Assembly: GCA_025454955.1 (NCBI GenBank)
Contig: JALONL010000006.1
Span: 284,198 to 348,197 of the forward strand
Reading direction: 5' to 3'
DNA length: 64,000 nucleotides
Origin: Bacteroidia bacterium
GTDB lineage: Bacteria; Bacteroidota; Bacteroidia; Palsa-965
The position numbers and the translations under genes are program-made. The notes below the pieces were generated by a model. The model saw only the letters and a program-made list of their open reading frames with translations. It did not search any database and was not told where the DNA came from. Below are positions 2,055 through 57,489 of the stretch, in pieces (the stretch's first letter is position 1; the number at the start of each line of letters is the position of its first letter).

Positions 2055-3515
2055 TTATGCGTTGCAACGCATCAGCCATTTGTCGAAACGGATGAGTTCG
2101 TAACCGGCGGGGTTCCACCAGAAATCGTCTTCGTTGCGCCGCAAAAGTTCTATGCGGTGGGCTTCCTGTATATCAAGCTGTTTGAAGCCGAGATTGGAGC
2201 GGATAAGTTTGTTGAGCAGCAGCATAATGGTGCCCAATCGTTTATCGTTTGGCGTTTTATCTGTCTCTGGCCGACGAACCGAATAACGGAATGCGTTGAG
2301 GCGGTGGGCGGCCACATCCATCATTCCGCGTTCGAGATTGAGTTGCAGGTCGATGAGGAAAAGGCCGGGCATCCAGCCGCGGTGGTCGTTTACCAGATCG
2401 CCGCAGCGGGCAATCTGGTTGGCGCTGGCTTTGTAGGCTTTCTCTTCGAGGGCAATGGCGGCAGTAAGCAGTTCGAGCCGGGCCCTGAGCAGCGGAAACT
2501 GTGCGACCTTGCGGTTGCCAAGCGCCTGCGAAATAACCTGTGTGGCGGCAAGGTGATTGCCGTTTCTGAAATGAGCCAGCGCCAGCATTCGTGCAGCCTG
2601 AAACTGCTGCTCGTACAGGCTGTCGCTCATCTCCAGGGCCTGCTGCGCATACTCGGCAGCCTGTGCATTTTCGCCCTGCGCCAGTGCTATTCCCGAAAGC
2701 TCTATGCTTACTGCCACTACGTTGCTTTCGGTATGCAAAATCGGGCTCGAACGAATGAGCGAAAGCAGGTGGTGGCCGTGTTCGCCAGCTTCGGGAAAAC
2801 TGCGCAGGGTATTGTAAAAATTCATCGCCGAGAGGTGGTAGTAAAAGCTCATGCGGTTTGATGACGACGAGGATATTTTTTTACCCATTTCGTTAAGCCG
2901 CTGCATGCCTTTCGACTGGAAATCGGCCAGGGAAACTGATTGGATAAGCTCGGGAGTTAAGAGTTCGTAGTGCAACTGTCGTGCGCGAAGCACATCGGCC
3001 TGGCAATCGTGCAGTTGCATAATTTCGCGGCTGAGCTGGCGGAACGACTCTGCGTTTTGTTGTATGGCTGGAGTGTTGCGGCGCAAATCATTCAGCAGAA
3101 GTTGTTCGGAAAACAATTCGCTCTTACGGGCCACACGCAGCGTGCGTTCGATAAGTGCATCGGCTTCGTCAAAACAGTTTCTCGACTGAAGCAGATCGGC
3201 CTGGAGCAGCGCACGACGGCAATCGAACTGAGCCTGCAAAAAAGGCATCTCCTCTTCGTTTTCCTGATCGGTAAGCAGCAAGGCTTTCAGTATATCATCC
3301 TGCAAACGCTGGCATAAGTTGATGAACGATGAAATGCGCGAATGGCTGTAACCGATTTCTTTTGCTGCTGCTTCTTCGTCCTTTCCCTCCAGAAGGAGTT
3401 CAAATAACTGATCGCGTTTCAGTCGCTCGCGATTTCCGTTTACCTGAATAATCAGACGCACGATGCGTATTTCGTATTTACTGAGTGACTGGATGAGGTT
3501 AGACAGGCCGGGCAT
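2055..3515 (-). CDS. Transcriptional-regulator-like protein with an N-terminal HTH (sigma-70 region-4/LuxR-like) and a long TPR-like alpha-helical repeat region
   Basis: A 486-aa ORF. The N-terminus (AAAKEIGYSHSRISSFINLCQRL) has an HTH pattern. The remainder consists of repeated Leu/Ala-rich ~34-aa helical-hairpin units (LALAHFRNGNHLAATQVISQAL, AAEYAQQALEMSDSLYEQ...). Confidence 0.5.
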   Translation of the reverse strand: MPGLSNLIQSLSKYEIRIVRLIIQVNGNRERLKRDQLFELLLEGKDEEAAAKEIGYSHSRISSFINLCQRLQDDILKALLLTDQENEEEMPFLQAQFDCRRALLQADLLQSRNCFDEADALIERTLRVARKSELFSEQLLLNDLRRNTPAIQQNAESFRQLSREIMQLHDCQADVLRARQLHYELLTPELIQSVSLADFQSKGMQRLNEMGKKISSSSSNRMSFYYHLSAMNFYNTLRSFPEAGEHGHHLLSLIRSSPILHTESNVVAVSIELSGIALAQGENAQAAEYAQQALEMSDSLYEQQFQAARMLALAHFRNGNHLAATQVISQALGNRKVAQFPLLRARLELLTAAIALEEKAYKASANQIARCGDLVNDHRGWMPGLFLIDLQLNLERGMMDVAAHRLNAFRYSVRRPETDKTPNDKRLGTIMLLLNKLIRSNLGFKQLDIQEAHRIELLRRNEDDFWWNPAGYELIRFDKWLMRCNA

Positions 3516-3851: not shown

Positions 3852-5429
3852 TTACCACGTTACATAAATCACTTTTTCGCTCCACGGATAGCGTATAATT
3901 GAAATCGGCCAGGGCACTTTATCAATGAGCACATCAAACGAATCGCGTTCAATGAGCAGTTCCCAGCCATCGTGCCCGGGCTGTAAACGCCCTTTATGTT
4001 GGAGAAACATTTTCCGGAATGAAGGTACGGTAGATCGTTTCAGCAATTCCCAGGTTTGAATGGCGTGTTGCACGGCTTTATCGGCTTCGGCCACAAATTC
4101 CATAAAGCGGCTATGTTCAAACTGATGCCATGCAGGCAGCGGTGTTTCGGGAGAAAGCCCTACTAAGATTTTATTAAGCAATAGCTGATGCTCGTCGAAC
4201 GGATGCGGGGCTTCTTCTTCCTGTTCGCTGAGGTTTATTTCTTCGGGGTTGCCCCAGACAAGAAGTTGCAGCAGCACGGCTGCCTCGGCCTGCGCCTGTT
4301 CACTCACAAATTTTTTATTTTCAATATGCCCGGTGCGCGCCAGAAATGTGCTGATGAATGGATAAAGCAGTACTAATCCTGCGTTTTCAATTACATAACC
4401 GTCTTCATCGGGAATGAGTGGTGTTTCGGTTTCGGGCTTTACCGGTTTATAGGGTTCATCGGTTTGCTGCGCGTCAGGCCGTTTGGCCTGTAATTCCGCA
4501 TCAGTTTGCCGGATGAGTTGAATAAGCTCCTGCCATTGTGCAGCAGATAACTGAGCCGGGGAAACACCGTTTTCTTTTGCAGCGGCTGCAGTAATTTCAT
4601 TTTCAGAAAACCCATGTGCAGCCGCAATTTCAAGAAGCCGCGCAAAGGGTTTCGAATACGAAGGCGCGGGGATGGTTTCAATTTCCCTGCGCAGTATGTA
4701 AAGCACACCTGCCGGTGAAATTTCCGGCTCACGGCTTTTTACAAAAAGCACGGTGGCTGCAAACTCTGCCGCAGCATAAGCACTGCCTTCGCTGCGGAGG
4801 TAACTGCCAAGCAGTTTCACGAAATGGCGAAGGCCGCTATCGGTAAACAGTTGCAGAAAAAACTCCTCTTTGAGTTGCAAAGCCAGCCTGAGAAATCCGT
4901 TGTATTGCTTTTGTACGGCAAGTTCACGCAGCAATTGGGTCATGGCTTCCTTACCAGCCAGTTGACTCACAAGTTCCTGCAAACTCTGTTTCACGGCCGA
5001 GCGCCAGGGCAGCAAACCGCTCACCAGCAAATGCCATATTATTTCCTGTGTGCTGTAAATCCTGCTTTTGAGATGTACGGCAATTTCAATACTGTTGCCT
5101 TGTTCATCGGTATCATAAAGAACCACTTCCCTGCCCGCCTCTTCGCGCGCCTGCTGTACAAGTCGCTCCAACTGGCTTGCAAGAACAGTTTTAAACTGTG
5201 TGGCAAAAGTTTCGCTGAAATTCGATACTGTAAAACGCCCGGCATCAATCACTAACCTGTCGATGGTAAGAAACTCATCAGGCCCCACAAATTCATCGAG
5301 TACAGCCGAAACAGACCGGATAATTTCGTCCTTTCTATCCCGCAGCACTTCATCCTGAATAGTAATTCCCTGTTGCTGGTCGGGCACCTGCAACTCGATT
5401 TCAAAACGACGAATAATGTGATTGTTCAT
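3852..5429 (-). CDS. Hypothetical protein (525 aa) with no recognisable domain and an acidic central linker
   Basis: A long ORF with coding-like composition and no convincing overlapping alternative. An AT-rich putative promoter region lies upstream at 5430-5690. Confidence 0.5.
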   Translation of the reverse strand: MNNHIIRRFEIELQVPDQQQGITIQDEVLRDRKDEIIRSVSAVLDEFVGPDEFLTIDRLVIDAGRFTVSNFSETFATQFKTVLASQLERLVQQAREEAGREVVLYDTDEQGNSIEIAVHLKSRIYSTQEIIWHLLVSGLLPWRSAVKQSLQELVSQLAGKEAMTQLLRELAVQKQYNGFLRLALQLKEEFFLQLFTDSGLRHFVKLLGSYLRSEGSAYAAAEFAATVLFVKSREPEISPAGVLYILRREIETIPAPSYSKPFARLLEIAAAHGFSENEITAAAAKENGVSPAQLSAAQWQELIQLIRQTDAELQAKRPDAQQTDEPYKPVKPETETPLIPDEDGYVIENAGLVLLYPFISTFLARTGHIENKKFVSEQAQAEAAVLLQLLVWGNPEEINLSEQEEEAPHPFDEHQLLLNKILVGLSPETPLPAWHQFEHSRFMEFVAEADKAVQHAIQTWELLKRSTVPSFRKMFLQHKGRLQPGHDGWELLIERDSFDVLIDKVPWPISIIRYPWSEKVIYVTW

Positions 5430-39058: not shown

Positions 39059-39619
39059 TTAATCGTTTTGCATATTGAGTTTGTCCTGTATATCGGCTTC
39101 GGTGCGTACGAGGTGATTGAGGTGAAGCAACATAATTAACCGCGTACCGTCTTTCACCACGCCCGAAATAGCAGCCATGTCGAGCGACGAGTATTGCACA
39201 AAACCTGCCGCATCTTCAATCTGTTCTTCGTACACGTTAATGGTATCGGGCACTTCGTTTACAATTATGCCGGCTTTCACCGTTTCGTGTTCGAGCACCA
39301 GGGCATAGCGTTCCTGCAATTGCGTAGTTTTTTCGATTCCGAATTTTATTTCCGGATCGATTATGGCCAATATGTTGCCGCGAATATTTACCACGCCCAG
39401 AAAATAATCGGGCATTTGCGGTACGTGTGCAATTTTGGGGGCAGGCACAATTTCTTTGATCTTGTCGATAGACAGTGCGTACTCTTCGCGGCCAATTTTA
39501 AACACTACCAGCTGAATGCGGCGGCCGTTGGTTTCTTTTTCCTGAACTTCGGCGGCGGCTTCGCGCTTCACATCGTCGAGCGTGTAATGGCCGGGAGTAA
39601 TGGAGTTCGATGTATCCAT
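39059..39619 (-). CDS. cheW: Chemotaxis coupling protein CheW
   Basis: A 186-aa ORF with CheW-like domain features (…LVVFKIGREEYALSIDKIKEIV…, …GVVNIRGNILAIID…). Confidence 0.8.
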   Translation of the reverse strand: MDTSNSITPGHYTLDDVKREAAAEVQEKETNGRRIQLVVFKIGREEYALSIDKIKEIVPAPKIAHVPQMPDYFLGVVNIRGNILAIIDPEIKFGIEKTTQLQERYALVLEHETVKAGIIVNEVPDTINVYEEQIEDAAGFVQYSSLDMAAISGVVKDGTRLIMLLHLNHLVRTEADIQDKLNMQND

Positions 39620-39626
39620 GTCCGGC

Positions 39627-46423: not shown

Positions 46424-47860
46424 ATGTACATCCACAATCATCCTTCAAACAGTCCGTTTCTGTATGAATCGGAAGGAAAATTTACCGCCGGTGCACTTGA
46501 GGCGTACAATGAATTGCTGCGAAACGAAACAGACTGGCTCGTGCGTGTAATGCTGTTGCGTTTCCCGAAATCGTCCAACGGCGGTTACGAATTTGCTTCG
46601 GAAGCAAACTGGGAACAACTGCCTCCGCCCGATTTGCGCGATGGCAAAGGTCCGTATGCCGCGCTGGTAAATGCGCTCGAACTTGGTGCCGAAGAACGTT
46701 TGCTGCTCATCCTCACGCTGGCGCGGCAAATGAGCAAGCACTCGCTCAAGGTGCTTACGGATATTCTGATGACTCAGGCAGAGTATCACGACGAAATTGG
46801 CTGTTACTTCGTTACACCCAACCGTTCGCTGGTGTTTACGCTCAATACGGTGCTTACGCTCATTGCGGGCAATCATGCAGGACGGCGCGGTATGGCGTTT
46901 ACCAAACTGGTGCAGGAAAGTAAATTGGTGCGTGAGCAGATTCTTGAATTTGAAACACCTACCAATTTCAGCATTCAGTTTGGCGAGGGCGAAAAAGCAC
47001 CGGTGCTGGCCAAAGAGTATGTCACATTTCTGCTCAGCGGAAAACCGCCACGTCCTGATTTTGGCGAGAATTTCCCGGCCAAATTGGTAAGCACCAATCT
47101 CGACTGGCATCACCTCGTGGTACAGAAAGCCACGCGCGACGAAATAAACTGGGTGGTGCAATGGATCAGCCACGGCAGGCCGTTTACCGAACGTGTGGGC
47201 AGCAGGGCAATAAGCAGTTTTCCGGTGTTGTTTTTCGGCCCTCCCGGCACGGGCAAAACACTGGCGGCAAAACTCATCGGCAAGCAGTTTGGCAAAATGG
47301 TATTTCGTATCGACCTCTCGATGATGGTGAGCAAATACATCGGCGAAACCGAAAAAAACCTCGCCCGCCTGTTTGACCGCGCACAGGGCAAAGACTGGAT
47401 TCTGTTCTTCGACGAGGCCGATTCGCTCTTCAGCAAACGCACACAGGTAAACGACTCGCACGATAAATGGGCCAACCTCGAAACCAGCTACCTCCTGCAG
47501 CGCATCGAAGAATACGACGGTCTCTGCATCCTCGCCACCAACCTGCGCGACAATATTGATGCCGCCATGCTGCGTCGTTTTCAATACACCATCCATTTCC
47601 CGCGTCCCACAGAGGAACTCCGCGAACAACTCTGGAAAAGCCTGCTGCCAAACGGCTATGAGTTCGACCAGCTCGACTTCCGCAAACTCTGCGTGCAGGA
47701 TTTAACCGGTGCCAACATATCCAACGTACTCAACCACGCCTGCCTCGCCGCCGAAGCCGAGGGGCGAACGGTGTTGAAGAACTCAGAAATTGTACAGTTC
47801 ATGGCACTGGAGCTGATGAAGGAAAGTCGTACACTGAAATCGACCGATCATATTAAGTAA
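46424..47860 (+). CDS. AAA+ ATPase of the eCIS-associated (Afp15/Pvc15-like, CDC48-type) family
   Basis: A 478-aa ORF. The C-terminal AAA domain has Walker A FFGPPGTGKTLAAKLIG, Walker B ILFFDEAD, sensor-1 ILATN and an arginine finger region. …MMVSKYIGETEKNLARLFDRA… is the hallmark stretch of this ATPase family. The N-terminal ~270 aa are of unknown function. Confidence 0.75.
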   Translation: MYIHNHPSNSPFLYESEGKFTAGALEAYNELLRNETDWLVRVMLLRFPKSSNGGYEFASEANWEQLPPPDLRDGKGPYAALVNALELGAEERLLLILTLARQMSKHSLKVLTDILMTQAEYHDEIGCYFVTPNRSLVFTLNTVLTLIAGNHAGRRGMAFTKLVQESKLVREQILEFETPTNFSIQFGEGEKAPVLAKEYVTFLLSGKPPRPDFGENFPAKLVSTNLDWHHLVVQKATRDEINWVVQWISHGRPFTERVGSRAISSFPVLFFGPPGTGKTLAAKLIGKQFGKMVFRIDLSMMVSKYIGETEKNLARLFDRAQGKDWILFFDEADSLFSKRTQVNDSHDKWANLETSYLLQRIEEYDGLCILATNLRDNIDAAMLRRFQYTIHFPRPTEELREQLWKSLLPNGYEFDQLDFRKLCVQDLTGANISNVLNHACLAAEAEGRTVLKNSEIVQFMALELMKESRTLKSTDHIK

Positions 47861-47892
47861 GAAGTTTCCGTTTACATTTTCATTGCACAGTT

Positions 47893-50800
47893 ATGTCGCA
47901 TCGCCGCAATTTATATTCCTATCACGACGACGATTATTTCAAAACCCCGCAGCAACGCGCCTCCGAAGCCGCCAACAAAGCACAGGCCGATGCCGAGATG
48001 GATTTTGAGTATAACACCTGGCCGCGTTTGCAGCAAAAAATGGACGCGGGTCTTACACTCACGAAATATGAGTTGTATGATACGCGCATGTTTGGCGGGC
48101 CGCTGCACCGGACAAAGACTTTTGCCTACGTGCGTGCGCAGCAGAATGCGGAGAAGCTGAGTGTGGCTGCGGCCGATTCGGCTGAGGAGAAACAGGCGGA
48201 TGCGGTGGCCAACGCCGTGGCCACTGGCGGCGAGGTGCAAACCACCTCTACTGCCTCAGGGAAAACCGAAAGTTCGTCGCTTACTGTTTCGCCGGAGTTT
48301 GAGGAAAAACTGCTGGCAGGTAAAGGCCAGGGCGAACCACTCAACAGTGCATTGCGTGGGGAGATGGAAAGCAAAATGAATGGCGATTTCGGTGATGTGC
48401 GTGTGCATACCGGTGCTGATGCAGCGGAGATGAGCGCGGAGATAAATGCGCGGGCGTTTACGCATGGGAAAGATGTGTACCTGGGCAGCGGGGAGAGTGT
48501 GGAGGATAAGGAGTTGATGGCGCATGAGTTGGTGCATACGATCACTCCGGGAAATATCATTAAGCGCAAAGGAATAAACGATCCGTTGAATTACGGACTG
48601 CACCCCGAAGTAAAACCTAATTTCTTAAAAGGCAAAACCCTGTTAATGGATGCCGACGGCGATGGTTATCAGGAATTAGAACTTGTATTATATCTCGATA
48701 AAGACAAGGTTTTACAATTACAGGTGCATCATCTCGATAGCGACGTGTGGACCAACCGGCAGCACTTCCAGTCAGATAAAGAAGCATTGGTGGTATTAAA
48801 CTTTCAGACTCTGGGTGCAGCACATAAAACCTCAAAATTTACGCCCAACGATACCGAACTGAATACAAATTATATCAATCAGTTCAAACTCTATGATGAA
48901 GTCGATCCGGATAAAAAATCATATCAGCTAAATTTTGGTGCCGATGTGAATTTCAGACAGAATGGACAATACCATGCTGCTTTGGGCCCACACAAAATTA
49001 CATTCACTGTTAACCCATCAAAAATAAAGAAGCGCAGTGAAGATATTTCGTTTACCGAAACACGAAAGGCCGAAGCATTATCAGGCCCAATATATACGTT
49101 TCAGGCAGGGCAGCAGGGCGATGAAATAGAACTGCAAATTCAACAGGATTTCGAAGCTGCCATTCCTCAGGAAATGATAGCACAGAACCGAACCTCGGCA
49201 TATTCCATTTATGGATATATGAAAAGGCTAAATGGAAAAATTGTCCGATGGACAGAGCCGGTAATGGTTTATGCCGTAAACAATCAAATGCCGGCTTCAT
49301 TAAATCCGGTATATCAGGATGAAAAACTCATAGAACTGGGCATATCCGGATCATTCCTGCCTGATATAACCATTCATTATTATACGCTCTCCGAAAAAAA
49401 CAAATTCTATCATAATCGAAAAATACAACTTCATTTTTCAGGCCCTGCATTGTTCGGCGGTAAAGACTTCAGATCATTTATCCTCGTTAATAATTTCCCC
49501 GTAGCCAATTCAAACTTCCGTGGGGAAGATGATTACCATTCACTTTTAGATTATGAAGCACCAGCCATGCTGAATAATCAGGGTAAACCGTTGTCGGTGG
49601 AAGAAGATATTGCAAAAACAGAGGCCATACTTCTGCAACTGATGCAGCGACTTGTTCTCGACGGGAGTATGAATGAAATGGTTTTTCTTTCCTGGAAAGA
49701 ATACCTCCTGTCAAGAACTGTTCTTGAGGTAGTAAAGAATGCTAAAGTAAATAGTGAAGAAGAAAAAGCGCAAAGAAATTCCATTATTTTCAACGCAGCC
49801 ATGAAAGCCGACGCGTTTGCGTACCAGCTCATGAGGGAAACGAAAGCTTATGGCTATGTGCTTTCAAACAGTTATCCATCAAAAACAATTATCGTCGGGA
49901 ACTGGTCTAAAGAAGAGAAAGAATTTGAAGAGTTACATGCTTTATTAGATAATTATGTATTGAATATTGCTTCACGGAATACCGGCAATACTCCACCCGA
50001 TTATATTCACGACATTACATCATCGCCATCTGCTCAGCCCTACAGTGTTCAATACCGCTTACCTACCGAAGAAGAATTTACAGCCTACGAAAAGAGCAAA
50101 AAACAAGAAACAGACAGTATAAGAACCAACCTGAGAAACGAAGCAAAGGCCGAAGGATTAAATGAAGCGCAACAGCATGATAAACTTGTGGGGTCATACT
50201 CACATTTTGCCACTTACCGCAACCAGTTAAAAGAAATTGAGAAAAAGCAGTACCTGCAAAAAATAAATGCCGTTTTCTATGGCACTACTCCCGAACATAT
50301 TAACCAGTTTAATACGTCGTCAAGTACAAATGCGGTGGCGGTGCCGCTGCCGATTTGGGTGTATGTGGAAAACAACGAATGGCATATTGTGGATTTAATT
50401 AATCCTCAACAGCCATTCAAAGCTGCAGTACCGTATTATTCAGAAAACGGGAGCAATCCGCCCGAAGCACTTTTCGAGCAGCTAAACCACGAAAAGCATT
50501 TGCCCAAAGGTTATATATACTATCAGATCGGCGACCAAAAGAAAGTGGTAATTACCCAGGGCGAACAAACACAGTGGTATGATATTTTGGGTTATATCGC
50601 ACTGGGATTGGGGTTTGTAGGATTAAGCATAGCTACTTTTGGAGCAGCACTGCCTGCCAAAATTGCCGTACTGGGCACCGTAGTAAGCTACGCCAGCATA
50701 ATTACCGGCGCACTGAGCACCGCCGGCGACATGTGGGACAGTTACAAACACGGGCAGCTTACCGATCAGACACTCATGCTCAATATGCTCGATCTGGCCG

Positions 50801-52770
50801 GAGCATTGCTGCAATTAAAAACATTGTCGATAAGCCTTCTGCTTCGTTCAGAAACTATGGCCGCAAAACTGCCCAAAGCATTGCAGGCAGCCAAATTGGT
50901 TTACATGCCGCTGAAAATTGGCGAATACGCCACCGAAGGCACAAGACTATTTATCATTACTGCCGATGCTGCCGAACAAATTACTCAGATCATAAATGCT
51001 CCGGGCGACGATGAAGCCAAAAAGCGGGCATTGGTTACACTACTCTCGCAAATGGCACTTTCGTTGAGCATGTACGTGCTCGACGTGAAAGACTATGGCG
51101 ATGAAGTAAACTTAGTGCGTAATGCCGGAAAAAAATCAGGAGCAACCACACATTCACCACATACCGAACCTGATATAAATATTAAGATAAATGAACTATC
51201 CGGCAATGAAAATGTGGGCAAATCGGTAGTGGAGGCGGCTGGCGAAACTCAGGAAGAAATTCTCGGCGGTGACTCCGAAACACCAGTCACTACGGCACAA
51301 CAACGTGTGACGTATGGAAAGGACGAAAAGGGTTTTTACCGTACCAATCTCGACCAGCCTCACATACAACAACGTATAACCGAAGCCGAGTTCTACAACG
51401 CACGGGTAAGCATTGCCAATGCGCAGGTCAAAAAAACAGGCAAAATCGAAAACCCCGCCAAGGTTTCGGTCGATGCGTTGTTGCTGCTTGTGGCCTTTGC
51501 CGATCTGCAAATACAAGCCGTGAATTATCCGGCAGGCATTCTCGCCGGTGTGTCCACCGCCACGCTGTTGCTCCGCAAAGGTATGCGGGGCATGATTGGC
51601 AAACTCAAAGCAAAGAACCCCGGCATCAGCGACAAAGAATTATTGGATGAACTTAAAAAGACGATTCACAGCGATGGGGAACTAAACCGTTCGTTGAAGG
51701 AAAAGAATTTTAACTCTATTGATGAGGTGGATTTTGAAATGCCCGATGGCTCGAAGAAAAAGTTTGACGAGATAGCGCAGGAAGAAATTGACCATTCAAA
51801 ATTGCCCGACGAGGAGCGTAAGAAGATTGAGGCCGAACAGGAGGCAGAGCTAAAACCTGAGCAAAAGGAAAAGATCACCACGGAGGACGAAACGGTAAAG
51901 CCGAAAGAGGAAACACCTGAGATAAAACCGGAAATTACGTCTAAGAAAAAGATTGAGTACTGGGCAGAGGATCAGCTAACGCATGTACCCGGCAACCCGG
52001 AGTACCTGAAAATTATGCTTAATGGCGATCCGAAGCAGATTATTACGCTCAAGCGGGAGAAGGATAAGGATTGGATTGTACAGAGAGGAACGAAAGAAGC
52101 GAACGATAATAATAAGTTGACGAATGAAGAGATTTTGGAGAGAGTGCCGGAGAAGTATCGTAAAAAAAGTGAGACAATAAATCCGAATGAGGATGTAACA
52201 CAGAATACCTCCAATGAGGTTGAGAATAAAAAATCTGAAATACAAAAAGACAATTCAGAAAAATTAACATCTAAAAAGGCTGAGACCGGTGAACCTCCTT
52301 TTGCAAAGAGGAAAACAATATTGAAAGTTGGAGAGCCAATACTTAATGGTAAAATAAACCGGGTGCGTGCTGGCGATGAGAAGAAAATTGTTATTATCGG
52401 ATTAGATATGAACGGGCATGTAATTCCAATTGCCAAAGAATTACAAAGTCAGGGATTTGACGTGGAAATTTTAGAGGATAATTTTCTAAATGGTCGTACA
52501 TTTGAAATTGATGGTAAACAATGGACAGTTACCGAGGCTTTTAATGATATGGTTGAAAATGATAAATACGATGGCATGAGAGGGTTAGATAATAAAATTT
52601 TGCCAGAGTTTTTAGATCAAATACCAATGTATAAGCTAAACGAACAATGGATAACAGAACATAAAACGTCTGGAAAAACGATTCTTGATGTTGGAGGGCC
52701 TGCTAACTCAAATAAAACAAGCACCTTCTATAATATGGAAATTAACTCAATAAATTGGAACACGCAATGA
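47893..52770 (+). CDS. Giant polymorphic-toxin-like protein (1625 aa): N-terminal DUF4157 zincin-like domain, long central region with TM helices, K/E-rich disordered linker, variable C-terminal (toxin) domain
   Basis: Residues ~150-215 (coordinates ~48340-48540) read RGEMESKMNGDFGDVRVHTGADAAEMSAEINARAFTHGKDVYLGSGESVEDKELMAHELVHTI. This matches the DUF4157 consensus (fG.DFs.VRvH.d..A...a..l.ArAfT.G.diyf........LlAHEL.Hv). Hydrophobic helices lie at ~50580-50740 (ILGYIALGLGFVGLSIATFGAALPAKIAVLGTVVSYASIITGAL). A ~147-aa charged linker, repeated twice more downstream, precedes a unique C-terminal ~190 aa. Confidence 0.8.
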   Translation: MSHRRNLYSYHDDDYFKTPQQRASEAANKAQADAEMDFEYNTWPRLQQKMDAGLTLTKYELYDTRMFGGPLHRTKTFAYVRAQQNAEKLSVAAADSAEEKQADAVANAVATGGEVQTTSTASGKTESSSLTVSPEFEEKLLAGKGQGEPLNSALRGEMESKMNGDFGDVRVHTGADAAEMSAEINARAFTHGKDVYLGSGESVEDKELMAHELVHTITPGNIIKRKGINDPLNYGLHPEVKPNFLKGKTLLMDADGDGYQELELVLYLDKDKVLQLQVHHLDSDVWTNRQHFQSDKEALVVLNFQTLGAAHKTSKFTPNDTELNTNYINQFKLYDEVDPDKKSYQLNFGADVNFRQNGQYHAALGPHKITFTVNPSKIKKRSEDISFTETRKAEALSGPIYTFQAGQQGDEIELQIQQDFEAAIPQEMIAQNRTSAYSIYGYMKRLNGKIVRWTEPVMVYAVNNQMPASLNPVYQDEKLIELGISGSFLPDITIHYYTLSEKNKFYHNRKIQLHFSGPALFGGKDFRSFILVNNFPVANSNFRGEDDYHSLLDYEAPAMLNNQGKPLSVEEDIAKTEAILLQLMQRLVLDGSMNEMVFLSWKEYLLSRTVLEVVKNAKVNSEEEKAQRNSIIFNAAMKADAFAYQLMRETKAYGYVLSNSYPSKTIIVGNWSKEEKEFEELHALLDNYVLNIASRNTGNTPPDYIHDITSSPSAQPYSVQYRLPTEEEFTAYEKSKKQETDSIRTNLRNEAKAEGLNEAQQHDKLVGSYSHFATYRNQLKEIEKKQYLQKINAVFYGTTPEHINQFNTSSSTNAVAVPLPIWVYVENNEWHIVDLINPQQPFKAAVPYYSENGSNPPEALFEQLNHEKHLPKGYIYYQIGDQKKVVITQGEQTQWYDILGYIALGLGFVGLSIATFGAALPAKIAVLGTVVSYASIITGALSTAGDMWDSYKHGQLTDQTLMLNMLDLAGALLQLKTLSISLLLRSETMAAKLPKALQAAKLVYMPLKIGEYATEGTRLFIITADAAEQITQIINAPGDDEAKKRALVTLLSQMALSLSMYVLDVKDYGDEVNLVRNAGKKSGATTHSPHTEPDINIKINELSGNENVGKSVVEAAGETQEEILGGDSETPVTTAQQRVTYGKDEKGFYRTNLDQPHIQQRITEAEFYNARVSIANAQVKKTGKIENPAKVSVDALLLLVAFADLQIQAVNYPAGILAGVSTATLLLRKGMRGMIGKLKAKNPGISDKELLDELKKTIHSDGELNRSLKEKNFNSIDEVDFEMPDGSKKKFDEIAQEEIDHSKLPDEERKKIEAEQEAELKPEQKEKITTEDETVKPKEETPEIKPEITSKKKIEYWAEDQLTHVPGNPEYLKIMLNGDPKQIITLKREKDKDWIVQRGTKEANDNNKLTNEEILERVPEKYRKKSETINPNEDVTQNTSNEVENKKSEIQKDNSEKLTSKKAETGEPPFAKRKTILKVGEPILNGKINRVRAGDEKKIVIIGLDMNGHVIPIAKELQSQGFDVEILEDNFLNGRTFEIDGKQWTVTEAFNDMVENDKYDGMRGLDNKILPEFLDQIPMYKLNEQWITEHKTSGKTILDVGGPANSNKTSTFYNMEINSINWNTQ
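51717..52157 (+). repeat. Copy 1 of a ~440-bp direct repeat (encodes the K/E-rich pre-toxin linker) inside the giant gene
   Basis: TCTATTGATGAGGTGGATTTTGAAATGCCCGATGGCTCGAAGAAAAAGTTTGACGAGATAGCGCAGGAAGAAATTGACC... is near-identical to 53377-53820 and 54648-55095. Confidence 0.85.
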
Positions 52771-53270
52771 ATTCAGAAATCGTAAATTTAGCAAATAGAA
52801 TACAGATAAAAGTATTAAATCATTTCTCGTCAGTAATTGCAAATTTTGCTATAGAGATTGATGTTAAATACAGTGAGGAAAAAAACCTTCACATAATTAA
52901 CGATTCATTTAGACAAAGTAACTTTAGAATGGATATCTTCTTTCGAAGACCAAGTGCCAATAAAGTACTTCTCTTTACTTTTTATGATGGATATAATGGG
53001 AATAAGGAATTATCATATAAAATTGATTTTAAAATCTCGTCGCCGGGCAATAAACGTAACATCTATTCAGCAAAAGTACTATTTAAGCATTTGAATATTC
53101 CATACAGTTTCAATAATTTTTTTCTCCAACAAGGGGTAGATAATTTGTTTCTTCAAACTGATATTTTCTTAAAAAATATTGACGAATTGCTTGCTCTGCC
53201 AGAAATACAAACAATACTTTACACTGATGCTTGGATAGATATTCCGATAGATATGAGTGAGTACAAATAA
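52755..53270 (+). CDS. Putative cognate immunity protein of the resident C-terminal toxin domain (171 aa)
   Basis: Its start ATG overlaps the stop of the giant gene (CGCAATGAATTC, ATGA overlap). It is AT-rich, has no signal peptide and sits in the typical position of an immunity gene. Confidence 0.5.
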   Translation: MEHAMNSEIVNLANRIQIKVLNHFSSVIANFAIEIDVKYSEEKNLHIINDSFRQSNFRMDIFFRRPSANKVLLFTFYDGYNGNKELSYKIDFKISSPGNKRNIYSAKVLFKHLNIPYSFNNFFLQQGVDNLFLQTDIFLKNIDELLALPEIQTILYTDAWIDIPIDMSEYK

Positions 53271-53337
53271 TGGATAGGAATTTACATGTGAAGTCTCCCC
53301 GGAAACAGATAAATCTGAAAAATCAATTCACGATGAT

Positions 53338-54342
53338 GTGGAGTTAACCAAATCACTGCAAGAAAAAGGATTGACTTCTATTGACGATGTAGAGTTTGAA
53401 ATGCCCGATGGCTCGAAGAAAAAGTTTGACGAGATAGCGCAGGAAGAAATTGACCATTCAAAATTGCCCGACGAGGAGCGCAGGAAGATTGAAGCAGAAC
53501 AGGAGGAAGAGCTAAAACCAGAGCAAAACGAAAAGGCCACCACGGAGGACGAAACGGTAAAGCCGAAAGAGGAAACACCTGAGATAAAACCGGAAATTAC
53601 GTCTGAGAAAAGGATTGAGTACTGGGCAGAGGATCAGCTAACGCATGAACCCGGTAACCCGGAGTACCTGAAAATTATGCTTAATGGTGATCCGAAACAG
53701 ATTATTACGCTCAAGCGGGAGAAGGATAAGGATTGGATTGTACAGAGAGGAACGAAAGAAGCGAACGATAATAATAAGTTGACGAATGAGGAGATTTTGG
53801 AAAGGGTGCCGGAGAGGTATAGGAATAAATATCAGCCTAATGAAGTTAAATATAAAGATGGATGGACAAAGGAAAGAGTTCTTTCAAAGCCCAAAGGAGA
53901 GAGAGAGGTCCCTGAAATTTATTTATCAAATGATTACATTGAGAACCACTTGAGTATTTTTGAAAAAGAAGGCATTGTTTCTAGGATTGTTCTAAAGACA
54001 GCATATGATAAATATGGAATTGGTAAGCCGGATAAAGGGAAAACAGAGTTTGTCAGCTTGAAATCAGATATAGATAAACTCATTTCGGATTCAAATGGTG
54101 ACATCGAAATCTTATCAAGTGTACTTGGTGTCAGTAAAGAACAATTATCGGGTGGATTAGTACGTGTAGATTTTTATTTAAATTCACAGAATAAAGTTCA
54201 CATGCCATCAGGCAACGAGTTTGGTACAAATAGCCAATGGATTCCCGGTGGGAAATTGCCAACTGGGCAGCTTGAAGCAATCATTAAAACTGAAGGACTG
54301 ATTGTGAACGTAGATTACATTGTAAAAGACATAACATGGTAA
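53338..54342 (+). CDS. Orphan toxin cassette 2: linker repeat copy 2 fused to a different C-terminal domain (~175 aa); lacks the DUF4157/TM N-terminal part
   Basis: Residues ~14-160 are about 95% identical to the linker of the giant protein (SIDDVEFEMPDGSKKKFDEIAQEEIDHSKLPDEER...ILERVPERYR). The sequence then diverges completely (NKYQPNEVKYKDGW...IVNVDYIVKDITW). Confidence 0.6.
   Translation: MELTKSLQEKGLTSIDDVEFEMPDGSKKKFDEIAQEEIDHSKLPDEERRKIEAEQEEELKPEQNEKATTEDETVKPKEETPEIKPEITSEKRIEYWAEDQLTHEPGNPEYLKIMLNGDPKQIITLKREKDKDWIVQRGTKEANDNNKLTNEEILERVPERYRNKYQPNEVKYKDGWTKERVLSKPKGEREVPEIYLSNDYIENHLSIFEKEGIVSRIVLKTAYDKYGIGKPDKGKTEFVSLKSDIDKLISDSNGDIEILSSVLGVSKEQLSGGLVRVDFYLNSQNKVHMPSGNEFGTNSQWIPGGKLPTGQLEAIIKTEGLIVNVDYIVKDITW
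53377..53820 (+). repeat. Copy 2 of the ~440-bp direct repeat
   Basis: Near-identical nucleotide sequence to 51717-52157. Confidence 0.85.
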
Positions 54343-54569
54343 CAGAAATTTATTGTAAACCCTGGGATTTTACCTTATACCAAGTAAATAATGACTTGGT
54401 AATTAGTGTGGTTTTTTTTGGCTTAGTGGACTATCATAGAAGTTTTAGGATTGAAACTGGTACAGTTGATACCAGTAACTATGAATCCTTAGGAATTCTA
54501 TCTGAAAAAATTCGAAGAGCACCTGATGAGTACTCTGAGTCAGAAGTTAAACCAGCTATATTTTTTTAA
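54336..54569 (+). CDS. Small putative immunity protein for cassette 2 (77 aa)
   Basis: Its start overlaps the cassette-2 stop (CATGGTAA). It has a hydrophobic segment (LVISVVFFGLV). Confidence 0.35.
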   Translation: MVTEIYCKPWDFTLYQVNNDLVISVVFFGLVDYHRSFRIETGTVDTSNYESLGILSEKIRRAPDEYSESEVKPAIFF

Positions 54570-54639
54570 TGATTTTCGATTAATTGAAAAGAAATTTGAT
54601 TAATCGGATTTTTGATTCTATTTTCCTTTAATGAAAGGG

Positions 54640-55531
54640 CTCCACTTCTATTGACGATGTAGAGTTTGAAATGCCCGATGGTTCAAAGAAAAAGTTTGAC
54701 GAGATAGCGCAGGAAGAAATTGACCATTCAAAATTGCCCGACGAGGAACGTAAGAAGATTGAGGCTGAACAGGAAGCAGCGCTAAAACCTGAGCAAAAGT
54801 AAAAGACCACCACGGAGGACGAAACGGTAAAGCCGAAAGAGGAAACACCTGAGATAAAACCGGAAATTACGTCTGAGAAAAAGATTGAGTACTGGGCAGA
54901 GGATCAGCTTACGTATGAACCCGGCAACCCGGAGTACTTGAAAATTATGCTCAATGGTGATCCGAAACAGATTATTACGCTCAAGCGGGAAAAGGATAAG
55001 GATTGGATTGTAGAGTCAGGAACGAAAGAAGCGAACGATAATAATAAGTTGAAGGATGATGAGATTTTGGAGAAGGTGCCGGAGAAGTATAAAAGTAAAA
55101 AAAATGGGAATGAGTGGAAAAGCGTCCAGAAAATCAAGAATAAATACCCAGATGAAAAAATGCCTTCTGATGGTGTACTATATGGAATAGCTGAAATTAA
55201 AGACGGGCTAATCCAGTCTATTGGAAATAAGGGTAATAATTTTAATGAAATTGATTTTGTCGTAACAACAAAAGGCGAACTCATAATTGGGAAAAAACAT
55301 CATTTCCTAGGGAATGCCTTGGAAGTAGAAGCCGCTGGAACACTAAAAATTGTAAATGGGAAAGTCAAAAAAATAACAAACGCTTCAGGACATTATTTAC
55401 CATCTGTTGAAGAAACTCTTAACTTTGAAGCTGTATTCAAAAACTTAGGAATCAATACCACTAATACAGCATTAGAGATATATTATATCGACGGAAACAA
55501 ATTAAAATCAACTACAAAATTTTTGAAGTAA
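54640..55531 (+). pseudogene. Orphan toxin cassette 3: linker repeat copy 3 with an in-frame nonsense codon (TAA at 54799-54801, GAA in copies 1/2) fused to a third distinct C-terminal domain
   Basis: In GAGCAAAAG TAA AAGACCACCACGGAGGAC the third codon is GAA in the other copies (EQKEKITTED becomes EQK*KTTTED). The distal ORF 54938..55531 encodes the remainder plus a unique C-terminal domain (…GKKHHFLGNALEVEAAGTLKIVNGKVKKITNASGHYLP…). Confidence 0.6.
54648..55095 (+). repeat. Copy 3 of the ~440-bp direct repeat (slightly more diverged)
   Basis: It shares the TCTATTGACGATGTAGAGTTTGAAATGCCCGATGG... start and aligns to copies 1 and 2 throughout. Confidence 0.8.
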
Positions 55532-56046
55532 TGGAATACACAGAGTTAATTAATACTATTCATAAAGCAGATTTCAATATCAACAAGCATAATCTTTCAG
55601 CAATTGATATTGATAAAATTTGTGCTGTGCCTGATAAATTTGACTTTATGAAATCTCTTTTTGAAAATTTCGACTCCCGATTTTGCGAAGGATTACTGTT
55701 AACCTGTCCTTGTTTATGGACAAATTTCACTCTTAAAGATTGGGAAAAAATTATAGTTTCTATATCTCCAAGGGTTAAATTAAATGACAACATTACTTTT
55801 CATATAAATAATAATTCAGGATACGCAGATGTGATATTCATAAGACGATACTTCAATATAGACATCGAAAATTTAATTGAGAAATTACCTCAAATGCTTA
55901 GCGATGATAAGAAAAAAATAAGAGACTTTATTTCATTTTATGATGAAAAAATTTGCAAAAATAAAAATGAGATTACCGAAGACCTCAATGACTTCTACAA
56001 TATTTCGTTTGAGGAGTTAAGTGACTATGTAGCTCACATGAAATAA
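55531..56046 (+). CDS. Putative immunity protein for cassette 3 (171 aa)
   Basis: Its start overlaps the cassette-3 stop (GAAGTAATGG, TAATG overlap). It is cysteine-containing and AT-rich, with no signal peptide. Confidence 0.45.
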   Translation: MEYTELINTIHKADFNINKHNLSAIDIDKICAVPDKFDFMKSLFENFDSRFCEGLLLTCPCLWTNFTLKDWEKIIVSISPRVKLNDNITFHINNNSGYADVIFIRRYFNIDIENLIEKLPQMLSDDKKKIRDFISFYDEKICKNKNEITEDLNDFYNISFEELSDYVAHMK

Positions 56047-56070
56047 GATTTTAATTTATAATTCGACTTC

Positions 56071-56307
56071 ATGAATATTTCATTTGAAATAATATCGAAA
56101 GGCAGTTTGTTAGTTCATTACCATAACAAAACTGCTCTTATCAGCGGAGAACTTGTTTTTTCCCCGCCAGTATTTTATGCCGATCTATCTTCTTTAATTT
56201 ATTGGCAGCCTCCATATGAAATGGATGCAATATCTCAAAGCGAAAAAAGCGATATAATTTCGTTTTTAATAAGTCAAAATACAGGAACAAAAATTGTGTT
56301 TGATTAA
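56071..56307 (+). CDS. Small hypothetical protein (78 aa), candidate orphan immunity gene
   Basis: ORF in the AT-rich immunity island; no recognisable domain. Confidence 0.3.
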   Translation: MNISFEIISKGSLLVHYHNKTALISGELVFSPPVFYADLSSLIYWQPPYEMDAISQSEKSDIISFLISQNTGTKIVFD

Positions 56308-56401
56308 TAGTAATTGAGAAATTTTGATCGGAAAGTCTGGGGGTGAGTTGTAAATTTTCCTATAGTATCAGTTCGGTGAAAGTTAGTAGTTTTGAGCGTA
56401 G

Positions 56402-56935
56402 TTGTTTTTTGAAAGATTTCAATCTGATGCTCAAACAAAGATAAATATGCAAAACATAGACATAAAAGTAAATGAATGTCAATCAACACTAACCTCAGTT
56501 TTTACTAAAAACGAGGATAATTTTTCACATCATTGGAACATAAAAATTGAGGCTGGTCCCCATTCATTTTACTTAGAATTTTTGCAATTAGAAAACTCGC
56601 AGTCTATTTTTGATCTTTCGAATAAGTCATTTAGAATTAGCGATACAGATTTATTACAGTTGCAGTCCTGTTTCATCAATGATTCGGGGATTAAGATTGC
56701 GAATCAAATTCAAATTTCATTTGATGAATTTGATAGTGAAATAAGAAAAATCCATTCAAAAGTAAAGCTGAATTTTAATTCATATATCGTGAGTGTAGAA
56801 ACAGATATGTTATTTGCTGGATATAATTTTTATGAGGTTCCCGAAATCAATATAGAAAGGATTATTATCGAAAAAAAATTAGGTGAAATTAGAGTTCAAG
56901 ATATTGGCATTAATAATAGGCTATATAATTACTAA
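56402..56935 (+). CDS. Hypothetical protein (about 165 aa; likely start MQNIDIK at 56447), candidate orphan immunity gene
   Basis: ORF in the AT-rich island; no recognisable domain. Confidence 0.35.
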   Translation: MFFERFQSDAQTKINMQNIDIKVNECQSTLTSVFTKNEDNFSHHWNIKIEAGPHSFYLEFLQLENSQSIFDLSNKSFRISDTDLLQLQSCFINDSGIKIANQIQISFDEFDSEIRKIHSKVKLNFNSYIVSVETDMLFAGYNFYEVPEINIERIIIEKKLGEIRVQDIGINNRLYNY

Positions 56936-57042
56936 AATCCCCAACATTTCCTCAATGCTTTTCCTCACTTAAAATATTTATAATTCGACAACTATTGAAT
57001 AGATGAAGCCCAAAACAATCATTACATTTTATACTCAATAAT

Positions 57043-57489
57043 ATGAAATGTTTAACAATACTAAACAATCAAGAATCCAAGGTACAGCCAAGTGATATTG
57101 ACTACTTTGAAGAAAGGTATAAGATCAAAATTCCCGAAAAACTGAAAGACTTTTTTTTGTTATTTGGGGGCTCTAGAATCAAAGAGATGTATTATCATAG
57201 AGGTGAATCTTTGGATCAAGTTTGTGATATACTTTTAGTTAAGTCAATACAAGGAAAACCATCATGTGAGTCGATATATCAGGGACACCTATCTTATGGA
57301 GATATTGGCTTTATTCCATTTGCAATTGACTCCGGCGGCTGGGATTACAACGTATCTATAAACCCTGACACCTACGGCCAAGTTTGGGTTGATAAATTCG
57401 ACAGCGGCGAAGAAACCCCTTTTGAGTTTGTATGTAATTCCTTTGAAGAATTTATTGATGGGCTTACTGAGCAAGAAAAGGACTTTTAA
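57043..57489 (+). CDS. SMI1/KNR4 (SUKH-1 superfamily) immunity protein
   Basis: A 148-aa ORF. IDYFEERYKIKIPEKLKDFF...GG, IPFAIDSGGWDYNV and the C-terminal FVCNSFEEFIDGL fit the SUKH fold pattern. That pattern has an N-terminal ligand-binding helix, a central GG and [ILV]PFA.D..G..[FY] strands, and a C-terminal F..FL motif. Confidence 0.7.
   Translation: MKCLTILNNQESKVQPSDIDYFEERYKIKIPEKLKDFFLLFGGSRIKEMYYHRGESLDQVCDILLVKSIQGKPSCESIYQGHLSYGDIGFIPFAIDSGGWDYNVSINPDTYGQVWVDKFDSGEETPFEFVCNSFEEFIDGLTEQEKDF

Follow-up and report, generated by a model that had tools for sequence, protein, structure and literature searches.

A polymorphic-toxin gene with its own AAA+ ATPase, orphan cassettes and immunity-type genes in a Bacteroidia genome, probably a detached module of a contractile injection system

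Introduction

How does a bacterium deliver a toxin of 1625 amino acids (aa) whose gene stands beside an AAA+ ATPase gene and is followed by a row of toxin fragments and small genes? The locus concerned occupies positions 46424-57489 of the window, i.e. the whole stretch of 64,000 nt that was analysed. A sequence-only reading had described it as stand-alone, with an unclear delivery route, and as possibly an undescribed toxin-delivery module. It consists of a polymorphic-toxin gene accompanied by a predicted loading ATPase, spare toxin ends and antidote genes. Very probably these arm a phage-tail-like injection machine whose genes lie elsewhere on the contig, so that the locus belongs to an already known type of system and a new delivery route is not indicated. 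The reading preferred here, with a probability of roughly 0.8, is that the locus forms a detached loader and cargo module. The contractile injection system (CIS) to which it belongs would have its genes scattered across one replicon, at three or more sites.

Anatomy of the locus

All genes of the locus lie on the plus strand. The first encodes an AAA+ ATPase of the CDC48 type (46424..47860, 478 aa), identified by PF00004, its motifs and its PDB relatives, the best of which are CDC48/p97 D2 domains. There is a single, classic AAA domain (aa 268-393; PF00004, 3e-27), with Walker A GPPGTGKT (aa 272), pore loop KYIG (aa 304) and Walker B ILFFDE (aa 326); the N-terminal domain of ~230 aa has no match in Pfam. 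The protein is of the Alg15/Afp15 type, a predicted cargo unfoldase/loader, the likeness to Alg15 being one of family and gene context rather than of direct sequence comparison.

The polymorphic toxin of 1625 aa is encoded 32 nt downstream (47893..52770). It was delineated by PF13699, hydropathy, composition and comparison with homologs. Its N-terminal region (aa 1-148, nt 47893-48336) is by composition rich in disorder-promoting residues and leads into a DUF4157/eCIS_core zincin-like domain (aa 149-217, nt 48337-48543; PF13699, 5e-21), where the HExxH motif takes the form HELVH. A variable central region separates this domain from a TM-like hairpin (aa 896-942, nt 50578-50718), and hydropathy points to further TM-like segments at aa 966-984, 1047-1065 and 1189-1211. 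A pre-toxin block, K/E-rich in composition (aa 1269-1428), precedes the C-terminal domain (aa 1429-1625, nt 52177-52767), whose homologs are always C-terminal. This expressed domain has 102 homolog clusters and forms the extreme C-terminus in every multi-domain match; the carrier proteins measure 161-1694 aa and include another DUF4157 giant, an RHS-repeat protein and fn3 giants. The other giants of the clade share only aa ~80-230 with the toxin. Neither a secretion signal nor a channel component was found in the locus.

Three copies of a block of ~465 nt, with 93% pairwise identity, are present at 51697-52174, 53360-53829 and 54644-55109, and a different C-terminal coding sequence follows each. 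The first copy is the conserved pre-toxin segment inside the main gene. The second belongs to orphan cassette 1 (53338..54342), where it is joined to a different C-terminal domain of ~170 aa and the first 1268 aa of the toxin are missing. Orphan cassette 2 (54644..55531) consists of the third copy and a third, distinct C-terminal domain of ~145 aa; an in-frame TAA at 54800-54802 breaks its block, and the mechanically called ORF begins only at 54938. Neither cassette has a sequence match in Pfam or PDB. Over the cassettes, the GC content drops from ~0.48-0.52 to 0.34.

Six small ORFs accompany these toxin ends. A candidate cognate immunity gene of the expressed toxin (52767..53270, 167 aa) begins at 52767, where its start codon and the toxin stop codon overlap as ATGA; JGI makes the same gene call, and no family was found in Pfam or NCBIfam. 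A 77-aa ORF directly 3' of orphan cassette 1 (54336..54569) and a 171-aa ORF whose start overlaps the end of orphan cassette 2 (55531..56046) are likewise candidate immunity genes by position, and a 177-aa ORF (56402..56935) is an orphan candidate on the same ground; these three gave no family match. Another orphan candidate, of 78 aa (56071..56307), is weakly Imm74-like: it matches PF15603 at 0.0021 and 18.6 bits, under the cutoff of 27.1, and has 28% identity with a gene of locus L171 that JGI annotates as Imm74. The last gene (57043..57489, 148 aa) encodes a SUKH/SMI1-KNR4 immunity protein (PF09346, 2.6e-11; PF14568, 7.7e-09).

Much of the sequence-only reading stands. HMM searches upheld its AAA, DUF4157 and SUKH calls, and the giant toxin with TM-like helices and a variable C-terminus, the two orphan cassettes (which have the block in common with the main gene) and the overall polymorphic-toxin architecture were all borne out. 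The six immunity-type genes are present, one of them SUKH; for the other five the role is assigned by position, and this counts against the preferred reading.

CIS genes in the window and on the contig

Is the module really stand-alone? As that reading had stated, Pfam families of sheath, tube, baseplate, Rhs and VgrG are absent from the window, in a search covering nearly all ORFs of at least 125 aa. It had missed, however, a CIS tape measure protein of 525 aa on the minus strand (3852..5429; PF19268, 2e-76, 258.6 bits), which matches the full Pfam model (1-463/463) and is named 'contractile injection system tape measure protein' by NCBI (MCU0433052.1). It lies outside the locus, 41 kb away, yet belongs to the same system. 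Directly downstream of it, also on the minus strand, is a gene for a TPR-like protein of 486 aa (2055..3515; weak TPR_16 match). Homologs with 23-39% identity occur near or beside the ATPase in L006, L090, L173, L105, L087 and L169, and one adjoins CIS_TMP in L171. The TPR-like protein is a conserved partner of the ATPases of this clade; that it acts as an adaptor or chaperone is a guess. The third gene of the tape-measure island (434..2017, minus strand) encodes a 527-aa protein with weak P-loop matches (sub-threshold, AAA/ORC-like) and had no homolog among the other loci compared; its membership in the CIS system is uncertain. The window also contains an IS transposase, at 27611-29167.

The 365-kb contig (Ga0392395_0000017), on which the ATPase gene spans record positions 33,149-34,585, holds a CIS baseplate operon ~312 kb from it. 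In the stretch 346,655-365,330, P0276, a homolog of c16, is preceded by GPW_gp25, a Baseplate_J protein of 1160 aa, c5 and c2 (c5, c2 and c16 are labels given here to conserved eCIS cluster proteins; c3 is Baseplate_J). The slots after c16, usual for tape measure and ATPase, are filled by other genes, so that the tape-measure and ATPase genes found in the window are plausibly those that moved. No sheath, tube or spike genes were seen in the contig stretches examined; their expected place is before record position 346,655. The CIS genes lie on the same replicon, not adjacent to the module, which answers in spirit to the adjacent CIS set that the sequence-only reading had named as evidence against itself. 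'Stand-alone' no longer describes the module. The 312-kb gap and the unseen sheath, tube and spike genes count against the preferred reading, and chimerism is, in principle, conceivable for a contig of metagenomic origin.

Homologous ATPase loci in other genomes

Homologous ATPases elsewhere are mostly found at the 3' end of eCIS clusters, beside the tape measure and DUF4157 cargo, and CIS_TMP adjoins the ATPase homologs within such clusters. Of 82 distant homologs whose loci include 9 kb or more of upstream sequence, 64 have a tape measure or a recurrent baseplate-cluster protein within the same 20-kb locus, which supports the placing of the ATPase in an eCIS-associated family. The typical gene order is c3(Baseplate_J)-c5-c2-c16-CIS_TMP-[DUF4157]-ATPase. 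L172 has an ATPase of 44% identity set within the order c2-c16-CIS_TMP-...-ATPase-giant-small genes, and in L171 CIS_TMP is 5 kb from the ATPase-toxin module. With relatives that end complete-looking eCIS clusters, as in L172, and with CIS genes on its own contig, the readings of an unclear delivery route and of an undescribed toxin-delivery module are not supported.

In the close clade of the ATPase, eight of the ten non-redundant loci have no CIS gene within 10 kb on either side, and the detached loci sit among housekeeping genes, e.g. ileS/lspA, surA and a Mur ligase. In L006, another detached module, a c16 homolog is present on the same 4.5-Mb contig. Recognizable toxin/immunity pairs are found in sister loci (GIY-YIG/Imm26, WHH/SUKH_5, AHH/Imm11), and some giants, those of L003, L167 and L172, have no DUF4157.

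Proposed mechanism and alternatives

From the anatomy of the locus, its family relations and the CIS genes on the same contig, we infer the following scheme. The ATPase, as a hexameric unfoldase of the Alg15/Afp15 type, would recognize the N-terminal region of the 1625-aa protein, unfold it and feed the chain into the CIS particle's inner tube. Upon contraction, the toxin would be released at or into a neighbouring bacterium, and the DUF4157 domain and TM-like helices may have a role in processing and/or membrane translocation. The C-terminal domain of ~195 aa would be the toxic part, with self-immunity probably provided by the gene overlapping the downstream end of the toxin gene. The two promoterless, 5'-truncated cassettes could replace the expressed C-terminus and immunity gene by homologous recombination via the ~465-nt block, and the extra immunity genes may protect against toxins of relatives.

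Could the ATPase and the TM-containing DUF4157 protein instead form a self-sufficient export or insertion module, with no contractile particle? The CIS-free surroundings of eight of the ten close-clade loci, the giants that lack DUF4157 and the internal TM helices, which are unusual in a tube-lumen cargo, are in its favour. A 180-kDa toxin with TM helices is indeed a demanding lumen cargo, the largest natural one that we found documented being of 1228 aa (Cgo2), and this counts against CIS loading. We nevertheless consider such a module very unlikely: the contig also holds CIS tape-measure and baseplate genes, L171 and L172, as the closest embedded relatives, tie the module to CIS genes, the TPR-like partner of the ATPase adjoins the tape measure and the locus lacks a secretion signal or channel component. 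Furthermore, CIS tube cargo loading is the sole experimentally supported role found for the ATPase family (bioRxiv 10.64898/2026.05.27.728243).

Alternatively, ATPase, tape measure and toxin might be leftovers of a fragmented, non-functional eCIS operon, as the scatter of CIS genes over at least three loci, the premature stop in one orphan cassette and the IS transposase (27611-29167) would allow. This is unlikely, as the key ORFs are all intact and of full length, the tape measure spans its whole Pfam model, the ATPase retains Walker A, Walker B and pore loop, and a stop codon within a silent cassette is nothing unusual in orphan modules. The detached arrangement recurs in many divergent genomes (ATPase identity 41-66%) with its partners intact, which argues for selection and against decay. 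That another Bacteroidota machine, a T6SS-iii or T9SS, delivers the toxin is extremely improbable. DUF4157 is 'sometimes present in T6SS effectors' (PMC11297309) and several T9SS-tail proteins are encoded nearby, but no T6SS gene was seen within 84 kb, the toxin has no Por_Secre_tail domain, its variable toxic C-terminus is incompatible with a T9SS C-terminal signal, and the adjacent ATPase is of CIS type, not ClpV.

Relation to known systems

The detached loader and cargo reading has a close parallel in AlgoCIS of Algoriphagus machipongonensis, also of the Bacteroidota. There, loading of the tube with Cgo1 and Cgo2, DUF4157 cargos of up to 1228 aa, requires Alg15 and its Walker B glutamate; Alg15 is dispensable for particle assembly and absent from the particle, and the loading signal is the disordered N-terminal domain (NTD) of the cargo (bioRxiv 10.64898/2026.05.27.728243; PMC8894135). 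The two systems have in common the cargo order NTD, DUF4157 and variable C-terminal domain, very large cargo (Cgo2, 1228 aa) and a single-AAA-domain ATPase that is genetically linked to the cargo as a loader, not a structural part of the particle. AlgoCIS is encoded in one cluster, whereas here 312 kb separate the baseplate genes, and 41 kb the tape measure, from the ATPase and cargo genes; immunity genes, orphan cassettes and TM-like cargo helices also set the present locus apart.

In the archaeon Halogeometricum borinquense, the CIS ('archaeal T6SS') shows sheath-dependent secretion of DUF4157 toxin-immunity pairs, with the immunity partner downstream and some pairs distant from the CIS cluster, judging by locus tags; the role is antagonism between related cells, and the portions of the account consulted mention neither a dedicated ATPase beside the distant effectors nor orphan cassette arrays (PMC11566945). 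PVC-type polymorphic toxins with an N-terminal PVC-metallopeptidase (Zhang et al., 2012, PMC3482391) and eCIS-associated toxins (EATs; Geller, 2021, PMC8213781; Danov, 2024, PMC11297309) have a constant N-terminal DUF4157, hypervariable C-terminal toxins, linkers that may pass 1000 aa and an accompanying CDC48-like ATPase. Most have no adjacent immunity genes, and 88% of EATs are encoded no more than ten genes from the operon (same sources). The immunity array, silent cassettes and distant position distinguish the locus described here.

In CDI (cdiA-CT/cdiI) and Rhs orphan arrays, a homology block common to cassettes and main gene permits toxin switching. In these arrays, 5'-truncated C-terminal/immunity cassettes come after the main gene (reviewed in PMC4436062). 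The present locus has such truncated cassettes and a homology block, and its expressed C-terminal domain is also found on an RHS protein. The scaffold, however, is a CIS cargo instead of a T5SS or T6SS/Rhs protein, no VENN or PxxxxDPxGL demarcation motif is present, and the shared block is a K/E-rich pre-toxin segment of ~155 aa. Auxiliary (orphan) T6SS clusters of vgrG, adaptor, effector and immunity genes lie away from the main structural cluster and are used in trans. They, too, are effector modules with their own loading accessory, apart from the structural genes; by analogy with AlgoCIS, the accessory here would be an unfoldase driven by ATP, in place of a passive adaptor or chaperone, and the cargo would enter the tube lumen instead of being mounted on the spike.

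The main elements have been published, namely long-linker DUF4157 cargo, loading that depends on an AAA+ protein (Alg15) and toxin-immunity pairs with DUF4157 that a CIS secretes and whose genes lie far from its cluster. The locus evolves as polymorphic toxin systems do. Three features are modestly new: in this clade of ATPases the module is often detached (8/10 loci), the orphan cassettes form an array, and three putative toxin domains carry no annotation.

The ATPase and its relatives

The AAA+ ATPase gene (46424-47860, plus strand) encodes a 478-aa protein with the PF00004 AAA domain at aa 268-393 (3e-27), and a Walker A motif (GPPGTGKT), a Walker B motif (ILFFDE) and an aromatic pore loop (KYIG) can be read from its sequence. 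No Pfam family was found for the N-terminal domain of ~230 aa. The best NCBIfam match, the IteA anti-phage ATPase (NF042959), was rejected: it scores 117 bits vs a cutoff of 510, with the AAA part alone matching. The closest solved structures in a PDB sequence search are the D2 domains of CDC48/p97/VAT (3e-35). This agrees with the placement of the ATPase of PVC-type systems in a CDC48-related clade, as against the ClpV/ClpB clade of T6SS (Zhang et al., PMC3482391). The window protein has one AAA domain, whereas the available text on Pvc15 describes D1 and D2 as separate domains (bioRxiv 10.1101/2023.08.15.553202).

In which gene contexts do related ATPases occur? At least 160 homolog loci were fetched from GTDB species genomes and metagenomes (numbered with L here), their ORFs were clustered and the recurrent clusters annotated; the resulting proportions are drawn from the matches listed and are indicative only. 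The commonest neighbours are the PF19268 tape measure (CIS_TMP), DUF4157 proteins and four large baseplate-cluster proteins labelled c3, c5, c2 and c16, with one c3 member matching Baseplate_J. The usual gene order is c3-c5-c2-(c16)-CIS_TMP-[DUF4157 cargo]-ATPase, or CIS_TMP-ATPase-DUF4157. By family, and by these recurrent contractile injection system (CIS) neighbours of its homologs, the window ATPase is assigned to the CIS-cluster ATPases of the Afp15/Alg15 type.

Linkage to CIS genes was counted over loci that are non-redundant and have 9 kb or more of upstream flank. Among the matches listed, 64 of 82 distant homologs (<41% identity to the window ATPase) have CIS_TMP or a baseplate-cluster gene in the locus. 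In the close clade (at least 41% identity), eight of ten loci lack any CIS gene within 10 kb (Fisher p = 5e-4 vs the distant set). These eight lie in housekeeping surroundings, in the order ATPase, giant downstream protein, small genes. The idea, held over eight loci, that every close-clade module stands alone was overturned by the other two, where CIS_TMP or baseplate-cluster genes do lie within 10 kb: in L171 CIS_TMP is 5 kb away from the ATPase, and L172 has the order c2-c16-CIS_TMP-510aa-...-ATPase-1026aa-small genes.

Polymorphic-toxin content is recognisable in several close-clade loci. L169 (GCA_016194975.1, JACQAM010000023.1) encodes DUF4157, PT-HINT and GIY-YIG in a single protein (11417-15520) with Imm26, an orphan WHH with SUKH_5, and AHH with Imm11. 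SUKH and Imm74 are present in L167, and L006 and L090 each carry several tandem ATPases and DUF4157 genes.

The putative toxin and its C-terminal domain

The predicted polymorphic toxin gene (47893-52770, plus strand) begins 32 nt 3' of the ATPase gene and encodes 1625 aa. Residues 149-217 match PF13699 (DUF4157, now eCIS_core; 5e-21, 75 bits vs a cutoff of 22), with the HExxH motif present as HELVH. By composition count, 53-60% of aa 1-200 are disorder-promoting residues. Hydropathy marks TM-like segments at aa 896-942, 966-984, 1047-1065 and 1189-1211, and aa 1300-1500 are K/E-rich in composition. The NCBI version of the toxin (MCU0433085.1) has 1468 aa on a 354,668-bp contig, vs 1625 aa here and at JGI; the two differ in start call or in assembly.

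With the expressed C-terminal domain (aa 1467-1625) as query, exhaustive HMMER searching gave 102 homolog clusters; a word-indexed homolog search gave zero matches and missed even the source protein. The domain stands at the extreme C-terminus in every multi-domain HMMER match, in proteins of 161-1694 aa. Among its carriers are another DUF4157 giant (P0121), a protein with RHS repeats (P0134) and giants containing fn3. A distribution of this kind marks a mobile polymorphic-toxin tip, and the homologs suggest that the domain is one, found on differing delivery scaffolds. Of the C-terminal domains, whose structure prediction the sequence-only reading proposed, the expressed one gave a confident AlphaFold2 model (26 homologs; pLDDT 92, pTM 0.85) with a three-layer alpha/beta fold, but a structural search with it gave no significant relative. 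For the locus's three C-terminal domains and five of its small ORFs, nothing meaningful came from Pfam at E up to 10 or from sequence and profile searches of PDB.

Cassette array and candidate immunity genes

A block of ~465 nt (456-470 nt) is present in three copies with 93% pairwise identity and no internal indels, at 51697-52174 (toxin aa 1269-1428), 53360-53829 and 54644-55109. The three coding sequences share register to aa ~1428 and are unrelated beyond each block copy; this makes the two downstream copies C-terminal cassettes truncated at the 5' end. In orphan cassette 2 an in-frame TAA (54800-54802) lies within the block. Six small ORFs accompany the array, one after each of the three toxin ends and three farther downstream. 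The first starts over the toxin stop codon (ATGA at 52767), while those after orphans 1 and 2 overlap the preceding ends by 7 nt and 1 nt, respectively. GC content falls from 0.52 in the ATPase gene through 0.44 over the 5' portion of the toxin gene to 0.34 in the cassettes, against a window average of 0.48; no tRNA genes were found flanking the low-GC cassette region.

The ATPase, the toxin and the small ORFs are as the sequence-only reading described them, and HMM searches confirmed AAA, DUF4157 and SUKH. The three-copy block bears out its view of a 1625-aa toxin with a variable C-terminal domain and two orphan cassettes. Its immunity array holds as to the six small ORFs and the clear SUKH member, but the SUKH protein (2.6e-11) is the sole array member in a recognised immunity family and adjoins no toxin end. 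One other small ORF is weakly Imm74-like, under the Pfam cutoff. Judged from sequence, the array has the architecture of a polymorphic toxin system: constant N-terminal part, conserved junction, variable C-terminal domain and 5'-truncated downstream cassettes. By analogy with the orphan arrays of CDI and Rhs systems, the C-terminus would be switched through the ~465-nt block, and the downstream small genes would give self-protection.

A small LRR protein gene (59074-59691, plus strand) lies 1.6 kb 3' of the cassette array. In L173, a close-clade locus, LRR protein genes (5539-7182, 7756-8274 and 17435-18337) are directly 3' of DUF4157 cargo genes. LRR proteins and DUF4157 cargo are possibly linked.

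Dispersed CIS genes on the contig

Where are the genes of the injection system itself? The sequence-only reading took the module to be stand-alone. That description fails, as a CIS tape measure gene that it missed lies in the window (3852-5429, minus strand; PF19268, 2e-76, whole model covered, same name at NCBI) and a baseplate operon lies on the same contig. The tape measure gene is 41 kb from the ATPase gene and heads an island between greA/HIT and priA, together with genes for a 486-aa TPR-like protein (2055-3515, minus strand; no firm Pfam family) and a 527-aa weak P-loop protein. Homologs of the TPR-like protein (~490-540 aa, 23-39% identity) are beside or near close-clade ATPases in L006 (8358-9971), L090 (8078-9688), L173 (8276-9796), L105 (3592-5118), L169 (2615-4078) and L087, and in L171 (14754-16277) one adjoins CIS_TMP. 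A protein found beside both ATPases and tape measures links the two islands, and it could be an accessory part of this CIS subtype that has so far gone unrecognised.

The baseplate operon came to light in a search with the c16 protein of L172 as query, which matched P0276 (37% identity, 1.6e-194) on the window's own contig (Ga0392395_0000017, 346,655-365,330). The stretch examined begins at GPW_gp25 and continues with c3 (1160 aa; Baseplate_J, 5e-9), c5, c2, c16, a 1342-aa protein, two small genes and the contig end; the CIS genes read there are gp25, Baseplate_J/c3, c5, c2 and c16. The window corresponds to record positions 81,008-17,009, reversed, and the operon therefore lies ~312 kb from the ATPase gene (roughly 265 proteins by NCBI accession spacing) and ~270 kb from the tape measure gene. 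No further CIS genes were found in the 10 kb outside either window edge. The slots after c16, usual home of tape measure and ATPase, hold neither gene in this operon, which fits a relocation of both into the window. For L171 and for the detached module L006, whose contig is 4.5 Mb long, a c16 homolog is likewise placed on the same contig.

The 1342-aa protein (13548-17576 of L176, the window-contig locus; record ~360-364 kb) sits after c16, in the usual tape-measure slot, and is followed by the two small genes. Its N-terminus is repetitive and S/Q-rich, a strong TM hairpin lies at aa ~912-970, and it shares 23% identity with the giant 3' of the L172 ATPase; it is probably a further cargo without DUF4157.

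Several other features of the window were recorded. A chemotaxis cluster (35450-41582, minus strand) comprises CheR, CheA, CheW, a receiver protein and an MCP, then an OprB porin, in a MAG labelled Bacteroidia by NCBI; chemotaxis gene clusters are uncommon in Bacteroidia. Two neighbouring proteins of ~1360 aa (6755-10837 and 12290-16393, both minus strand) are 73% identical in their last ~310 residues and have no Pfam family except one sub-threshold FlgD_ig match. An IS-type DDE transposase gene (27611-29167, minus strand; DDE_Tnp_1_6 and DUF772) is also present, and three tandem T9SS-tail proteins are encoded just past the window end (L174).

Cargo N-termini and a probable second module

Close-clade giants have in common just aa ~80-230, i.e. 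the NTD end and DUF4157. The one exception is the cargo of L005, encoded with a 61%-identical ATPase, which aligns with the window toxin from residue 1. DUF4157 is absent from the cargos of L003, L167 and L172. Nearly all close-clade cargos have a short acidic/aromatic N-terminus, e.g. MSHRRNLYSYHDDD, MSHNLFAHEEDD, MRRYQFAHDEDD and MSHRDYQYERED, which occurs with or without DUF4157. It was read in the first ~15 residues of the window toxin and of the products of genes 3' of the ATPase in L003, L005, L006, L088, L090, L167, L169, L172 and L173. A loose pattern, set after seeing the sequences, is present in 8/10 cargos vs ~8 unrelated proteins among 1906 ORFs. The shared signature is a candidate loading signal.

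L003 (10001-17019 of Ga0392395_0000061, from the same metagenome) encodes a 66%-identical ATPase and then an 1852-aa protein without DUF4157 or HExxH. It is probably from the same MAG as the window, because the sample of origin is the same and its NCBI accession, MCU0435828, falls within the accession block of the window proteins. The MAG thus probably holds at least two loader-cargo modules.

A probable detached loader-cargo module

In AlgoCIS, the cargos Cgo1 and Cgo2 (NTD-DUF4157-CTD; Cgo2 1228 aa) occupy the tube lumen (PMC8894135). Their loading requires the disordered NTD, the AAA+ protein Alg15 and the Alg15 Walker B glutamate; DUF4157 is dispensable in loading, and Alg15 is outside the particle and unneeded for assembly (bioRxiv 10.64898/2026.05.27.728243). 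If a loader works for the cargo rather than for the machine, its gene can sit beside the cargo gene, as it does at this locus. In Halogeometricum borinquense, according to the available text of PMC11566945, DUF4157 proteins are secreted sheath-dependently with immunity partners downstream, and some, judged by locus tags, are far from the CIS cluster. On these precedents the locus reads as a detached loader-cargo module of a CIS, with a probability of about 0.8; we infer loading, toxicity, immunity and recombination. Among EATs, 88% are within ten genes of a CIS operon (PMC11297309), whereas the window cargo is ~312 kb off, but proximity is typical and not defining.

Is a CIS needed at all? The housekeeping surroundings of eight close-clade modules could suggest delivery of the toxin without any CIS, but with a tape measure and a baseplate operon on the same contig we regard this as very improbable. 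A bolder form of the detached-module reading is that the ATPase and its downstream gene form a portable, self-contained cassette of loader, cargo and immunity, each paralog reading the N-terminal signature of its own cargo (with or without DUF4157), so that several scattered loci could arm one resident CIS in trans. This is a speculative extension, and we think it rather unlikely.

Several parts of this picture are known: N-terminal DUF4157, linkers of >1000 aa and variable toxins (PMC3482391, PMC8213781), toxin-immunity pairs at eCIS loci (PMC8213781), AAA+-dependent cargo loading (bioRxiv 10.64898/2026.05.27.728243; PMC11495950) and, in the available text of PMC11566945, distant DUF4157 effector-immunity pairs. 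The searchable literature yielded no report of frequent ATPase-cargo detachment within one Bacteroidia clade, of CIS genes dispersed with the tape measure in an island of its own, or of CIS cargo with a complete array of orphan cassettes and immunity genes. The novelty is in genome organisation within a known mechanism, and current understanding is not overturned.

The locus supplies three uncharacterised putative toxin domains with candidate immunity partners, and the candidate N-terminal loading signature might find use in engineering cargo loading. If the reading is true, the loader travels with the cargo and not with the machine, which fits the need for Alg15 in loading but not in assembly. 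Dispersed CIS gene sets would mean that operon-detection surveys miss both cargo and systems. The locus would be a clear case in nature of CIS cargo that evolves like polymorphic toxins of the classical kind, its silent cassettes and immunity array included, and this bears on the puzzle that immunity genes are missing for most antibacterial eCIS toxins (PMC8213781).
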